Notes: a model not told the origin generated them from the letters alone. DNA of 64,000 bases from a virus (IMGVR_UViG_3300035670_000106:26096-90095); one strand, 5' to 3'. Positions 21,166-25,448 are shown, counted from the stretch's first letter. Made by a program: numbers and translations.

Positions 21166-21711
21166 ATGTCTCTAATAGTCTGGAGCTCCTTTGGAGACAT
21201 ATGGAATGCAAATGGTAAGGTATCGTTTAATGGGGTTAACAAAACAATTAATGTTAACTCCGACGTTACAACTCTAGACATTAGAAGTGAGGTATACTCT
21301 CTTTGGGTAGACTGGCTAGAATTTGGTACAAATTCTAGCTTTCCTTTAGCTATGAGATACTCTGGAATGGATCCTATCCCTAATGGCGAGTCAGGAGGGA
21401 TCTTCTTCCTTACTAATGGTTGGAGACTTATTATTGACTTCAATAAAGTAGCAGTATTTGGCGTTTTATACTCAGACGACTATCCGACTGCTTATTTTAC
21501 AGAAGAGTTACAACCTTTATACCCTGCTCAAGTTAGTGGCATTGTTAATAATGTAATACAAACTAATACTGTAACAGTAGCAGCCAACCCAACAGAAGTA
21601 GCGCAAGCTATACTAGCTTCCCCTGTAAATACTAGTAGTACTCCCGGTTCTATAGGTGAGTTTATTACTAAAAAACTACTTACTGTAGCTAAGTTCATAG
21701 GATTAAGATAA
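21166..21711 (+). CDS. Hypothetical (putative virion) protein
   Basis: 181-aa ORF; VYS.WVDW and FFLTNGWR motifs. Confidence 0.55.
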   Translation: MSLIVWSSFGDIWNANGKVSFNGVNKTINVNSDVTTLDIRSEVYSLWVDWLEFGTNSSFPLAMRYSGMDPIPNGESGGIFFLTNGWRLIIDFNKVAVFGVLYSDDYPTAYFTEELQPLYPAQVSGIVNNVIQTNTVTVAANPTEVAQAILASPVNTSSTPGSIGEFITKKLLTVAKFIGLR

Positions 21712-22403
21712 TGACAACAAATAGACAACCTAATAACTCTAATAAAGGCAATTCGTACTCCTTCGAGGCCGAAAGTCTATTGATTCAATCTATGAATTTA
21801 CTATCTGATAGAATAGCTAAGGCAGAGACTGACTTTGTTGGGCACTTAAAGAAAGTTGAAGATAGGCTCGATCAAATTGTAGAACTTACTAAATCTGTTG
21901 CGGTTTTACAAACTCAAACTAGCCAACAAACAGATCATATCACAGAAATAAGGGAAGCACAAAGAGAGCAATTCCATAAAGCAGACGCCTCTCTTACTCG
22001 AGTGCACTCTAGAATCGAAGAGGTTCAATCTAACGCTAATATAAAGCTTGAAGCTTTTGGAACTGAAGTTAAAGCAATAGTTAAGGATGTAGAAAATCAC
22101 GCAGATAGCACAGATAGGGAACTAAAAGCTTGGCTTAATAGAGGTTGGGGGGCATGGGCAGTTTTTACCCTTGCTGTTACAATATCCTCAGGATTGTTTT
22201 ATAAGTGGGTAGACTCTATTGAACAGGATAAAGTTGTACTAACAACCTCAGTAAATCAATTGGTAGAGGTATCTACTAAAACTAATAACTCAATCCAGAA
22301 GTTGACTGAGCAAGTACAAAGTAATAAGCAAAGCATAGAAAGGCTTGATATTATGATGGATGACCTGGAAAAACAACTAGAGTATATGAGGATTAAAAGA
22401 TGA
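21711..22403 (+). CDS. Single-pass membrane protein with coiled coils on both sides of the TM helix
   Basis: Heptad-rich residues about 25-140 and 170-225; hydrophobic GWGAWAVFTLAVTISSGLFY segment. Confidence 0.6.
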   Translation: MTTNRQPNNSNKGNSYSFEAESLLIQSMNLLSDRIAKAETDFVGHLKKVEDRLDQIVELTKSVAVLQTQTSQQTDHITEIREAQREQFHKADASLTRVHSRIEEVQSNANIKLEAFGTEVKAIVKDVENHADSTDRELKAWLNRGWGAWAVFTLAVTISSGLFYKWVDSIEQDKVVLTTSVNQLVEVSTKTNNSIQKLTEQVQSNKQSIERLDIMMDDLEKQLEYMRIKR

Positions 22404-22828
22404 GAAAATTATTCTTTTTAATGCTTCTAATTGTTTCATTTAATGTATCAGCAACAAGTGTTCCTGCAATTAAAAATAATGACCCTAAATTAACGCAGTC
22501 TATAACAAAGTTAGAAGCTTACTGGCTTTACACTTTAAAGCTACGATATTGGGATAGTGGGCATAAGGTCACATTATTTCTTCTACCTTTTGATAGCTCT
22601 GTGCACAATACTTTTGTTAGGGATACCTTGGGGATCAACCCCAGGGTATTTCAACAGGTTATAGAGTCCAATATTAATATTGGGGTAGGGTCCTATAGGT
22701 TTGTAAGAAGCGAGTACTTAATGTATGATATGGTTAGTAAAGTACCCGGAGCTATTGGATATGTATCTAATAAGCTACTAATTAACGAAGGGGAAGGGCA
22801 TGTTCGCAAGATTAATATTACTGATTAG
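22400..22828 (+). CDS. Small secreted periplasmic-binding-protein-like protein (short phosphate ABC substrate-binding type)
   Basis: Signal peptide MRKLFFLMLLIVSFNVSA; W.SG..V.LF..P..S..H..F....LG and V...PGAIGYV motifs. Confidence 0.65.
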   Translation: MRKLFFLMLLIVSFNVSATSVPAIKNNDPKLTQSITKLEAYWLYTLKLRYWDSGHKVTLFLLPFDSSVHNTFVRDTLGINPRVFQQVIESNINIGVGSYRFVRSEYLMYDMVSKVPGAIGYVSNKLLINEGEGHVRKINITD

Positions 22829-23884: not shown

Positions 23885-24439
23885 ATGGCTTTACCACTTT
23901 TACTAGCACCTTTATTAGGTAAATTAGCAGAAAATGGACTTGGACTACTAGCCAGCGCAGTCACAGCTAAGGGCAAGGACTTAATTGAGGAAAAACTAGG
24001 AGTAGACCTTGATAAAGAGATGGGGTCTGAAGAAGGGCGTATTAGGTTAAGAGAGCTAGAATTAAAGCACGAAGAGTTTTTAATTGAATCTGCACAGAAA
24101 AAAGCGGAACAAGAGTTAGAAGTAATTAAAGTTAGCAATGCTGATACAGCTTCTGCTAGAGATATGAATACCCGTATTCAGGAGTCCACTAATGCTTCAG
24201 GATTCGCAAAAAATGCCGCATATTACTTAGACTTTGTAATCGTAGGAGCCACACTAGTCCTAGCTTACATTCTATTCTTTGTTCAGATACCAGAAGAAAA
24301 TCTCCAGCTACTTTATATGGGGTTTGGTTCACTACTGACTATGTGTGGTACTATTCTTAATTTCCACAGAGGCACTTCCCATTCTTCAAGAGAAAAAGAC
24401 TCAGCCATACACGGTATTTTAGGAGATAAAAAATTATGA
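23885..24439 (+). CDS. Holin-like membrane protein
   Basis: N-terminal amphipathic helix, coiled coil with D..SAR motif, two C-terminal TM helices then NFH.G.S; immediately upstream of endolysin. Confidence 0.6.
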   Translation: MALPLLLAPLLGKLAENGLGLLASAVTAKGKDLIEEKLGVDLDKEMGSEEGRIRLRELELKHEEFLIESAQKKAEQELEVIKVSNADTASARDMNTRIQESTNASGFAKNAAYYLDFVIVGATLVLAYILFFVQIPEENLQLLYMGFGSLLTMCGTILNFHRGTSHSSREKDSAIHGILGDKKL

Positions 24440-24762
24440 GCTTAGGCGCAGAGCAAGAAAGTTTTACTCGTGATCTTGTTAAACTATTAACAAAAGCTTT
24501 CGAGCTGGGTTACGAAGTACGTATGGGAGAAGTACAGCGCCCTGTTGAAATGCAGGAACTATATGTCCGTACTGGCAGGTCTAAAACCATGAATTCACAG
24601 CACCTGAAGAAATTAGCTGCCGATTTACATTTTACAAAAGATGGAACACTGTGCTATCCTCAGGAGTTAGGTGACTACTGGGAGTCTTTATCTAAAGTTA
24701 ACAGGTGGGGTGGAAACTGGAAATCTTTCAAAGATGCCCCACATTTTGAAAGATTTGTCTAA
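24436..24762 (+). CDS. Endolysin, M15-family peptidase (T5 Lys-like L-Ala-D-Glu peptidase)
   Basis: R....Q..., SQH....AADL, RWGGNW...D.PHFE motifs. Confidence 0.85.
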   Translation: MSLGAEQESFTRDLVKLLTKAFELGYEVRMGEVQRPVEMQELYVRTGRSKTMNSQHLKKLAADLHFTKDGTLCYPQELGDYWESLSKVNRWGGNWKSFKDAPHFERFV

Positions 24763-25448
24763 TGGCTTCTTCCTCTAAAAAAGCTAGAAAAGTTGCATCT
24801 AATCCTAACCAGATCCAGATTAACGGCTTTGAGCCAATAAAGCCTAAGAACTTTGCACAAAGCACTTATTTAGATGCTATCCGTAGGTCTGATATTGTTT
24901 TTGCAACAGGCCCTGCAGGTACTGGTAAGTCGTATATTGCTACAGCATACGCCGCGGAGCAACTTTACTATAAGAAGGTTGATAAAATTATTATAACTCG
25001 CCCAGCTGTAGAAGCTGAGGAAACTATGGGGTTCTTGCCCGGGGAACTAGAGGAAAAATATGCTCCTTACTTAGCACCTATAAGAGACATACTAGATAGA
25101 CTACTAGGTAAATCCTTTGTAGACTACTGTTTAAAGGTTGGGTATATTGAGGCAGTTCCAATCGCCTATATGAGGGGACGTACTTTTGATAACGCCATTG
25201 TAATACTAGATGAAGCACAAAACACAACCCCAAATCAAATGAAGCTAATCCTATCTAGAATAGGTAATAACTGTACATACATCATTGATGGGGATATTTC
25301 TCAGAAAGATATTCAAGGGCACTCTGGGCTAGAGGATGCTATGAAAAAACTTTCTGGCATTCCTGGAGTAGATATGGTTAACTTTTTTACTTCTGACATT
25401 GTTAGAAGTCCTTTATGTAAGAAAATTATACAAGCGTACTCGGAGTAG
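24762..25448 (+). CDS. phoH: PhoH-like ATPase
   Basis: GPAGTGKS, RPAVE, GFLPG, YMRGRTF, LDEAQN, GDISQKD, DIVRS. Confidence 0.95.
   Translation: MASSSKKARKVASNPNQIQINGFEPIKPKNFAQSTYLDAIRRSDIVFATGPAGTGKSYIATAYAAEQLYYKKVDKIIITRPAVEAEETMGFLPGELEEKYAPYLAPIRDILDRLLGKSFVDYCLKVGYIEAVPIAYMRGRTFDNAIVILDEAQNTTPNQMKLILSRIGNNCTYIIDGDISQKDIQGHSGLEDAMKKLSGIPGVDMVNFFTSDIVRSPLCKKIIQAYSE

Follow-up and report, generated by a model that had tools for sequence, protein, structure and literature searches.

A coiled-coil membrane protein, a half binding protein and a porin-like barrel encoded beside the lysis genes of an uncultured phage

We describe a three-gene module in an uncultured tailed phage, located in a 64,000-nucleotide stretch of DNA (hereafter the window) that corresponds to bases 26096–90095 of the 90,095-base linear IMG/VR virus record IMGVR_UViG_3300035670_000106. 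The completeness of this record is estimated at 86%. An initial annotation of the window had reported three overlapping open reading frames (ORFs) that run directly into genes for a holin-like protein, an endolysin and PhoH, and all six ORFs were confirmed to the base, on the plus strand, between window positions 21711 and 25448. The three overlapping ORFs encode a membrane protein with a proposed relay role at the inner membrane, a small secreted protein and an outer-membrane barrel, and are referred to below as the trio; the latter two form the pair.

The first gene of the trio (21711–22403) encodes a 230-residue bitopic membrane protein, recognized from its hydropathy, its flanking charges and a family of 75 clusters. 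It is followed by a gene (22400–22828) for a secreted, one-lobed, PstS-like protein of 142 residues, identified by profile search, AlphaFold2 and Foldseek, and by a gene (22800–23870) for a 356-residue porin-like barrel of the outer membrane, identified by AlphaFold2, Foldseek and four homologues. Downstream lie genes for a 184-residue holin-like membrane protein (23885–24439), which is described as such from its position and membrane segments and belongs to no named family, a 108-residue endolysin of the Peptidase_M15_4 type (24436–24762; Pfam and PHROG matches), and a 228-residue PhoH-like ATPase (24762–25448; Pfam PhoH, E-value 8.1e-78).

These six genes lie inside a block of nearly contiguous plus-strand genes that extends from 15416 to 27763, and the operon of the module is placed between tail and lysis genes. 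The junctions consist of TAATG at 21711, ATGA at 22400, a 29-nucleotide overlap at 22800, ATGA at 24436 and TAATG at 24762, and a short spacer containing GGAG separates the barrel gene from the 184-residue gene. The trio (21711–23870) is translationally coupled and leads into the holin-like gene, the M15 endolysin gene and phoH. We rejected the explanation that its members are chance ORFs or an artefact, because all three proteins have homologues elsewhere and the three-gene order is conserved in two other contigs. The anatomy of the module, as detailed in the following sections, can be stated with high confidence.

The three proteins and a predicted contact

The 230-residue protein contains one weak hydrophobic stretch at approximately residues 145–167, and no 19-residue segment of the protein reaches a Kyte-Doolittle value of 1.5. 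A long N-terminal helical or coiled-coil domain (approximately residues 1–144) precedes this stretch, and a helical C-terminal tail of 63 residues follows it. The protein had first been described as carrying a single transmembrane segment with coiled coils on both sides. The single segment stands, weak as it is, whereas the coiled-coil family matches found on both of its sides in Pfam and NCBIfam are all below threshold. The charge beside the stretch is +2 on the N-terminal side and -1 on the C-terminal side, from which we infer that the N-terminus is cytoplasmic and the 63-residue tail periplasmic.

Homologues of this protein form 75 clusters, which in the searches made were found only in uncultured phage-like contigs. 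An alignment of 37 sequences has 21 invariant columns in the N-terminal block and a variable C-terminal tail, and the juxtamembrane motif of the family is WLNRGxGAW. The family profile matches heptad repeat 1 of the coronavirus spike (5zuv, E-value 1.1e-5), and a precomputed Corona_S2 tag is attached to one of the homologues. We read this match as probably reflecting heptad-repeat composition rather than kinship with coronavirus proteins. A tblastn search of 50,697 deposited phage records gave no match for the 230-residue protein, the 142-residue protein or the barrel, in line with the earlier remark that T5 itself lacks such a set.

The 142-residue protein has a hydrophobic N-terminal leader at residues 3–25 and the stretch VPGAIGYV at residues 115–122, corresponding to the signal peptide and PGAIGYV motif that had been noted from the outset. 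A word-based search with this protein retrieved just the query itself. An exhaustive profile search of its family returned 1483 cluster representatives at an E-value of 1e-3 or lower, 329 of them at 1e-10 or lower. Among the 150 best rows of that search, 144 proteins have 118–190 residues, four have 192–198 residues, and two are 98-residue pieces. The name 'ABC-type phosphate transport system substrate-binding protein' is given by IMG to four of the ten relatives looked up. Pfam PBP_like_2 is matched at an E-value of 0.01 or lower by nine of 68 aligned relatives, and the 142-residue protein itself matches no Pfam family at an E-value of 0.1 or lower.

The best match of the family profile in the PDB is to residues 104–206 of 1twy, a 290-residue PstS-like protein from Vibrio cholerae (E-value 0.0013). 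The AlphaFold2 model has a predicted local distance difference test (pLDDT) score of 90.0, and the top Foldseek matches to it are PstS-type proteins (probability 1.00, 112–123 aligned columns), with a template-modelling (TM) score of 0.50 by query and 0.28–0.33 by target, none of which reaches an E-value of 0.001 or lower. Leads from the ESM Atlas are consistent with these matches, and a structural search of BFVD gave no meaningful match (best E-value 0.28). The binding proteins of the PstS type have 250–350 residues in two lobes that close over a cleft, whereas the present protein has 142 residues and aligns to one lobe. Because profile and model cover one PstS lobe only, we call it a half binding protein, a single lobe of the PstS-type fold as judged from the predicted structure. 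The periplasmic binding protein fold proposed in the initial annotation was therefore correct in type, but is present as one lobe rather than two.

At the Ser-Ser-Gly-Thr stretch of 1twy, which we take to be the phosphate-binding segment of PstS, the consensus of the half binding protein family differs and His is frequent. His69 is kept in 57 of the 68 family members. Phosphate binding by the half binding protein is, as far as its sequence indicates, not supported.

The 356-residue protein begins with a hydrophobic leader (residues 1–24) and ends in KF, with Phe as the last residue. Its AlphaFold2 model, obtained from a five-sequence alignment, has a pLDDT of 70.4, a predicted TM score of 0.72 and 16 strands, which is the number of strands in general trimeric porins of the OmpF, OmpU and PorB type. 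Foldseek returned 302 PDB matches to this model at an E-value of 0.001 or lower, bearing out the initial view of the protein as a beta-barrel that ends in Phe. The best of these matches are of the V. cholerae OmpT, PorB, OmpF and OmpU types (E-values 3e-11 to 1e-8), chitoporin is also among the leading ones, and the ESM Atlas leads agree in being porins. No Pfam, PHROG or NCBIfam family (Porin_1, Porin_4 or other) is matched by the protein, and the best PDB match of its family profile has an E-value of only 0.49. A long loop at residues 95–131, although of low confidence in the model, is more conserved than any other segment of the barrel (0.846, versus 0.58–0.73 elsewhere). This loop may fold inward in the manner of the third loop of trimeric porins.

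Homologues of the barrel comprise four other clusters in a collection of 5.8 billion proteins, at 30–47% identity. The resulting family of five clusters is restricted to phages in the searches made. Two scans of genome contigs gave no relatives, and scans of IMG/VR with the alignments of the barrel and the half binding protein returned solely one contig (L002, described below).

We modelled a complex of the barrel (residues 21–356), the tail of the 230-residue protein (residues 166–230) and, as the scored partner, the half binding protein (residues 20–142). The score for the barrel and the half binding protein is 0.68 (0.69, 0.67 and 0.68 in the individual runs), versus 0.00 in all three controls. 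That mark is reached by 58 of 80 solved complexes and by 2 of 110 mismatched pairs, counts that apply only roughly here because the model was built from custom alignments and with three chains. At least 82% of contacts are common to the runs, and the partner pLDDT is at least 82. On the barrel side, the contacts include both termini, the beginning of the conserved loop and, by the strand list, all seven periplasmic turns. The half binding protein is thereby predicted to cap the barrel at its periplasmic mouth. Residues 47–65 and 89–100 form part of its contact face and adjoin the conserved His69 and Trp51, so that the face meeting the second lobe in full binding proteins would here meet the barrel. 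No residue of the 230-residue protein's tail is within the confident interface; residues that the model does not name are uncertain and count neither for nor against a contact. The trans-envelope module envisaged at first is thus upheld in part: a contact between half binding protein and barrel is predicted by a complex model with controls, but no contact with the inner-membrane protein was obtained, and the family of the latter also occurs without the pair.

A capped barrel of this kind could alter or occupy the outer membrane and thereby block adsorption or injection by other phages, and so act in surface remodelling or superinfection exclusion. Receptor blockers and outer-membrane proteins of phage origin are known, for example Llp of T5 and Lom and Bor of lambda, and a barrel family confined to phages in our searches, with five clusters and none in genome contigs, would suit this role. 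However, exclusion genes usually act early, whereas the genes described here belong to a late operon and are flanked by tail and lysis genes. Exclusion would also leave the strict pairing of the barrel with a binding-protein lobe unexplained, and we consider it improbable.

Related loci in phages and bacteria

The order coiled-coil gene, half binding protein gene and barrel gene, with overlapping junctions and beside lysis genes, is found in all three readable loci that hold the pair (the window and the contigs L002 and L001), and the co-occurrence on which the initial proposal depended is therefore seen outside the window. The lysis genes at these three loci are of three unrelated kinds. In L002, an IMG/VR contig, the three homologues are 44, 43 and 40% identical to the proteins of the window and are encoded in the same order. 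Upstream of them is an overlapping pair of genes for a membrane coiled-coil protein and a lipoprotein (LSGC lipobox; phrog_456 'Rz-like spanin', E-value 0.002), along with a 140-residue membrane protein and a 97-residue ORF that has a weak endolysin match. Downstream are a stand-alone receiver gene, phoH and a gene for a 507-residue protein. The receiver gene (L002:3800–4153, plus strand; Response_reg, E-value 9.8e-12) begins 3 bases past the barrel gene, and its product may serve this module as a different output component.

In L001, a metagenome contig, a 212-residue protein with the same architecture as the 230-residue protein is followed by the half binding protein (32% identity) and the barrel (36%). 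Further downstream are a DUF5675 protein, a 172-residue ORF for a membrane coiled-coil protein, within which a lipoprotein ORF is embedded, and a 120-residue membrane (holin-like) protein. Four further contigs (3353, 13394, 7836 and 1833 bases) suggest, by equal sizes only, the combination of a coiled-coil homologue with a barrel or half binding protein.

Members of the coiled-coil family are found at five loci in IMG/VR, one of which is the L002 contig. At L013:5905–6866 (plus strand) the family gene overlaps a holin gene (phrog_8226, E-value 1.1e-5) by ATGA. No half binding protein or barrel is encoded in the 7 kb of this contig, which stops approximately 500 bases past the coiled-coil gene and 212 bases past the holin gene. 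A 181-residue gene upstream in the window was compared with a 182-residue gene of L013, and synteny between them was set aside, as the match is confined to 12 C-terminal residues (E-value 0.006). In L015 the family gene is cut by the start of the contig. With L015 excluded, the coiled-coil gene stands at a lysis cassette in four of the six contigs read (the window, L001, L002 and L013, but not L012 or L014).

The lysis genes of the window have counterparts in deposited phages. The 184-residue protein has a hydrophobic segment at residues 111–137 and matches phrog_9990 and phrog_1544, neither of which has an assigned function. Its homologues are located directly 5' of an M15 endolysin gene in both of the deposited phages examined, Curvibacter phage P26059A (45% identity) and Caudoviricetes sp. 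MW202545 (35%), and its position and membrane segments make it a holin candidate. The 108-residue protein matches Peptidase_M15_4 (E-value 4.1e-8; 34.1 bits, cut-off 25) and the endolysin family phrog_465 (E-value 3.2e-19), and shares 51% identity with the protein annotated in MW202545 as an L-alanyl-D-glutamate peptidase endolysin. The two genes have the character of a holin-endolysin pair, with an ATGA overlap, an M15 peptidase and an arrangement kept in both deposited phages. Since both of these phages possess the holin-like and M15 genes without the trio, the trio is an insertion, an addition to a pre-existing lysis pair.

No spanin was recognized in the phage of the window: the 90,095-base record (86% complete) contains no homologue of the spanin-like genes of L001 and L002 and no credible lipobox ORF, which agrees with the initial remark that no canonical spanin pair is visible. 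This leads to the proposal that the trio disrupts the outer membrane, forming a spanin-like bridge from the inner to the outer membrane in place of the missing spanins. The module does lie inside the lysis cassette, the 230-residue protein weakly matches phrog_739 'Rz-like spanin' (E-value 0.0028), and the fusion-protein heptad repeat 1 matched by its family profile could be taken in the same sense. However, matches to heptad repeats and spanins are typical of coiled-coil composition. In addition, the membrane segment of the 230-residue protein is at residues 145–167, neither of the two secreted proteins has a Cys at the end of its leader, and the periplasmic tail would be short, with 63 residues here and approximately 44 in L001. 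The pair probably descends from non-lytic bacterial genes, and the record from which spanins are missing is incomplete. Finally, spanin-type pairs, with an LSGC lipobox ORF either overlapping or embedded, adjoin the same trio in L001 and L002, which makes a role of the trio in outer-membrane disruption unlikely.

Relatives of the half binding protein are also encoded by bacteria. The bacterial context covers four plasmid or chromid records out of five hits, and in all four the profile of the half binding protein matches small proteins (E-values 1e-19 to 8e-32). In Halomonas (8e-32) the half binding protein is followed by a 433-residue barrel-like ORF ending in F and then by a dCache_3-PAS-GGDEF-EAL protein, and in Burkholderia (1.2e-19) a 337-residue ORF ending in F precedes the half binding protein, which precedes a 1092-residue EAL protein. 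Alteromonas macleodii has the half binding protein and a 386-residue ORF (with a leader and ending in F) as a pair alone. On a Vibrio plasmid the half binding protein adjoins a lipoprotein-like ORF. A barrel-like neighbour is therefore present in three of the four replicons and an enzyme of cyclic di-GMP (c-di-GMP) metabolism in two. The initial annotation had held that small PstS-like proteins and porins occur together beside membrane sensors in bacteria, and this applies, with GGDEF-EAL or EAL proteins, to two of the four loci. The A. macleodii pair (L005:6950–8527) is carried by the 336-kb plasmid pKD01, flanked by a DNA methylase gene on one side and a type IV CRISPR-Cas (csf) cluster on the other.

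A role in nutrient uptake had been put forward as an alternative, whereby the porin and the binding protein would raise the influx of phosphate or another solute alongside PhoH, similar to pstS of cyanophages. The PstS-like fold, the phosphate-transport name in IMG, the porin-fold partner and the presence of phoH next to the module in the window and in L002 (4157–4840; 51% identity between the two PhoH proteins) are all compatible with uptake. However, transport binding proteins are defined by a closed two-lobe binding cleft, whereas the half binding protein corresponds to residues 104–206 of the 290 in 1twy. In the ten proteins encoded from 19792 to 27763, to which the scan was confined, there is no partner ABC permease or ABC ATPase. 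L001 has no PhoH gene, and phoH is probably a neighbour outside the module; the bacterial relatives adjoin sensors, not transporters. Phosphate acquisition is improbable because the protein has one lobe, the family consensus departs from the phosphate-binding segment and no transporter accompanies it among those ten proteins.

The bacterial arrangement resembles VpvABC of V. cholerae (VC2456–VC2454), which one report presents as a 'predicted' porin, a periplasmic binding protein and a membrane cyclase (PMC12456836). The same report states that vpvAB pairs without vpvC are widespread, Alteromonas included, and makes no mention of phages. A further description of VpvABC, in PMC8754643, agrees with the arrangement seen in the bacterial loci. 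Phrase searches of the literature, and a wider search among the matches listed, gave no paper on a phage-borne porin and half binding protein module beside lysis genes. The bacterial pair has thus already been named in print, and its phage-borne form beside lysis genes is in none of the 50,697 deposited phage records.

These bacterial relatives raise the alternative that the phage pair is cargo, which plugs into a VpvC-like sensor of the host and shifts c-di-GMP levels, biofilm formation or motility, with the flank of the lysis genes serving as a tolerated insertion site. The pair is indeed found beside interchangeable c-di-GMP enzymes or alone in bacteria, both at the loci described above and according to PMC12456836. 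The phage has no such output gene of its own, as GGDEF, EAL and receiver domains had no match anywhere in the 90-kb record, and the occurrence of the holin-like and M15 genes in two phages without the trio identifies it as an insertion. On the other hand, at all three loci the gene of a phage membrane protein precedes the pair, its stop codon overlapping the next start codon, and late expression from an operon of structural and lysis genes would leave little time to reprogramme a host. We regard host signalling as quite unlikely. The porin and the half binding protein are instead likely to be a captured sensing or gating pair, and both phosphate uptake and spanin replacement are less likely than this.

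Surroundings of the module

A promoter-like site with a perfect consensus (TTGACA, 17 nucleotides and TATAAT, with an extended TG before the latter) is located at 15281–15309 on the plus strand. Judged by its consensus match only, this site is a possible start for the long plus-strand late operon that contains the module; promoter-like sites in the region are no more numerous than in shuffled sequences. A 10-pair hairpin occurs within 30 bases after the site (to 15365, plus strand), shortly before the late block's first gene. The plus-strand gene block closes with a strong terminator-like hairpin that has a 15-pair stem (27764–27797, plus strand).

Two giant ORFs are present on the plus strand upstream of the block. 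The first (358–6978) encodes 2206 residues, of which residues 942–1169 match the central tail fibre J family, and the second (7030–14673) encodes 2547 residues and matches no PHROG family at an E-value of 1e-5 or lower. On the minus strand, an HNH endonuclease gene (28760–29269; phrog_99, E-value 6.4e-59) splits the genes for the small and large subunits of a class Ia ribonucleotide reductase and overlaps the small-subunit gene by 4 bases. The window also encodes an SbcC-like protein and a DNA polymerase, as well as 17 tRNA genes in four clusters (54057–62769, minus strand), among them two for tRNA-Met and one that ARAGORN reports as tRNA-Ile with the anticodon tat.

The nearest synteny among deposited phages is with Curvibacter phage P26059A. 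We rejected an assignment to T5-like phages, as only the 507-residue protein matches a T5 tail-completion family, and does so weakly. Among the listed sequencing runs that share the words of the locus there is no RNA sequencing run. Apart from the probable source run, an additional run from the same study ('subsurface metagenome') contains half of these words, and the remaining listed runs contain small shares.

Possible lysis control and comparison with known systems

The reading that we favour is that of a bacterial envelope pair placed in a phage late operon, coupled behind a phage coiled-coil protein and in front of a holin-like gene and an endolysin gene. Taken as a whole, it is plausible but tentative, and we would put it somewhat short of an even chance. 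In the corresponding mechanism, the porin and the one-lobe protein would be a two-gene envelope unit of bacterial origin that the phage has placed in its late operon. The barrel would admit, or would be gated for, a cue from outside or from the periplasm, and the half binding protein that caps it would read this cue with its former inter-lobe face turned to the barrel. The resulting state would be relayed to the bitopic 230-residue protein, the large conserved N-terminal domain of which would reside in the cytoplasm, and this protein would control holin firing and thereby time or inhibit lysis. The bacterial read-out is a membrane enzyme that makes or breaks c-di-GMP, for which the phage would substitute its own bitopic protein.

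We propose the lysis step as the most likely output because the coiled-coil gene adjoins lysis genes, and overlaps a holin gene in a phage that lacks the pair. Lysis timing is nevertheless a doubtful assignment, though a possible one. The most specific form of the proposal, a phage-built trans-envelope sensor in which a porin capped by the half binding protein reports a small-molecule or envelope cue from outside so that an inner-membrane protein sets holin firing, is rather unlikely to be right in every part.

Several observations weigh against this reading. In lambdoid phages, accessory genes are known to insert at the edges of lysis cassettes, and position alone is therefore weak evidence of function. 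Searches with hidden Markov models (HMMs) found the coiled-coil family member in L012 and L014 to be without a half binding protein or barrel within approximately 6 kb on each side; its neighbours there match one family of DNA-binding proteins and one of tRNA amidotransferases, with no lysis genes. The coiled-coil family has 75 clusters and the barrel family 5 in the same database, and therefore the coiled-coil protein has a job of its own. Because members of its family occur without the pair, the two proteins of the pair seem to be an optional accessory of a self-sufficient phage membrane protein, and the trio does not look indivisible.

The independence of the loci is also restricted. The window and L002 derive from kindred phages, which have phoH and the 507-residue gene in common, and the three loci are for this reason not three independent lineages. 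The 212-residue protein of L001 matches the coiled-coil family profile weakly (E-value 1e-5, bias 14.2), at approximately the level of the spanin-like ORF in the same contig, and may be either a distant relative or an analogue of the 230-residue family. In addition, the residues of the predicted interface are no more conserved than the remainder of either protein (p = 0.74 for the half binding protein and p = 0.58 for the barrel).

The bacterial descent of the barrel is less clear than that of the half binding protein. Comparison of the phage barrel with bacterial barrels by hhalign gave probabilities of 11.8% and 2.9%, the phage barrel HMM matches none of the four bacterial neighbours, and blastp gave an E-value of 0.002 at best. 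The region aligned in this marginal similarity includes a GR...FYN...LP-like stretch. Since the similarity of the barrels is marginal, membership in the VpvAB type is established for the half binding protein family and for the gene arrangement, and does not extend to VpvAB proper.

If the proposal is true, the module would represent a class of lysis control unrelated to RI and T of T4, and the first assigned use of a VpvAB-type pair outside c-di-GMP signalling. Lysis timing set by information from outside the cell is known in detail for very few phages, and a self-contained sensor with an entry port in the outer membrane would give a virus a novel means of choosing when its host bursts. The module also offers a handle on the widespread bacterial pairing of a porin with a half binding protein (the family with 1483 cluster representatives), as the phage version is small and comes without a large enzyme partner.

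Comparison with known systems delimits these possibilities. The PstS-type proteins (PBP_like_2; 1twy, 4exl and 4n13) share with the half binding protein a one-lobe fold, weak profile similarity and a GAIGY-type stretch near the C-terminus. In contrast to them, the half binding protein is one-lobed, has no Pfam match and does not keep the Ser-Ser-Gly-Thr segment. With VpvABC, where VpvA is VC2456 and VpvB is VC2455, the module has in common a dedicated porin gene beside the gene for a small periplasmic binding protein, as well as an inner-membrane partner. It differs in that it has no c-di-GMP enzyme and that its inner-membrane partner is a coiled-coil protein found only in phages. The order of the genes (membrane protein, binding protein, barrel), their location at a lysis cassette and the marginal similarity of the barrels are further differences.

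The spanins of the lambda Rz/Rz1 type are likewise encoded in the lysis cassette and combine an inner-membrane coiled-coil protein with a partner in the outer membrane. However, their membrane segment is at the N-terminus, whereas that of the trio is near the C-terminus, and the outer partner in the trio is a barrel rather than a lipoprotein. Spanin-type pairs moreover coexist with the trio in L001 and L002.

The YfiB-YfiR-YfiN (TpbB) system spans three compartments, with one protein in the outer membrane, a small one in the periplasm and an output protein in the inner membrane. The layout of the phage module is similar. The folds are unrelated, YfiB being an OmpA/Pal-like lipoprotein and YfiR not being known to resemble periplasmic binding proteins. 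In the lysis inhibition of T4, the antiholin RI acts on the holin T. The likeness, which is one of analogy only, is that a periplasmic signal relayed to a holin delays lysis. Unlike RI and T, the module described here has a channel in the outer membrane, and its membrane partner would have a large cytoplasmic domain.

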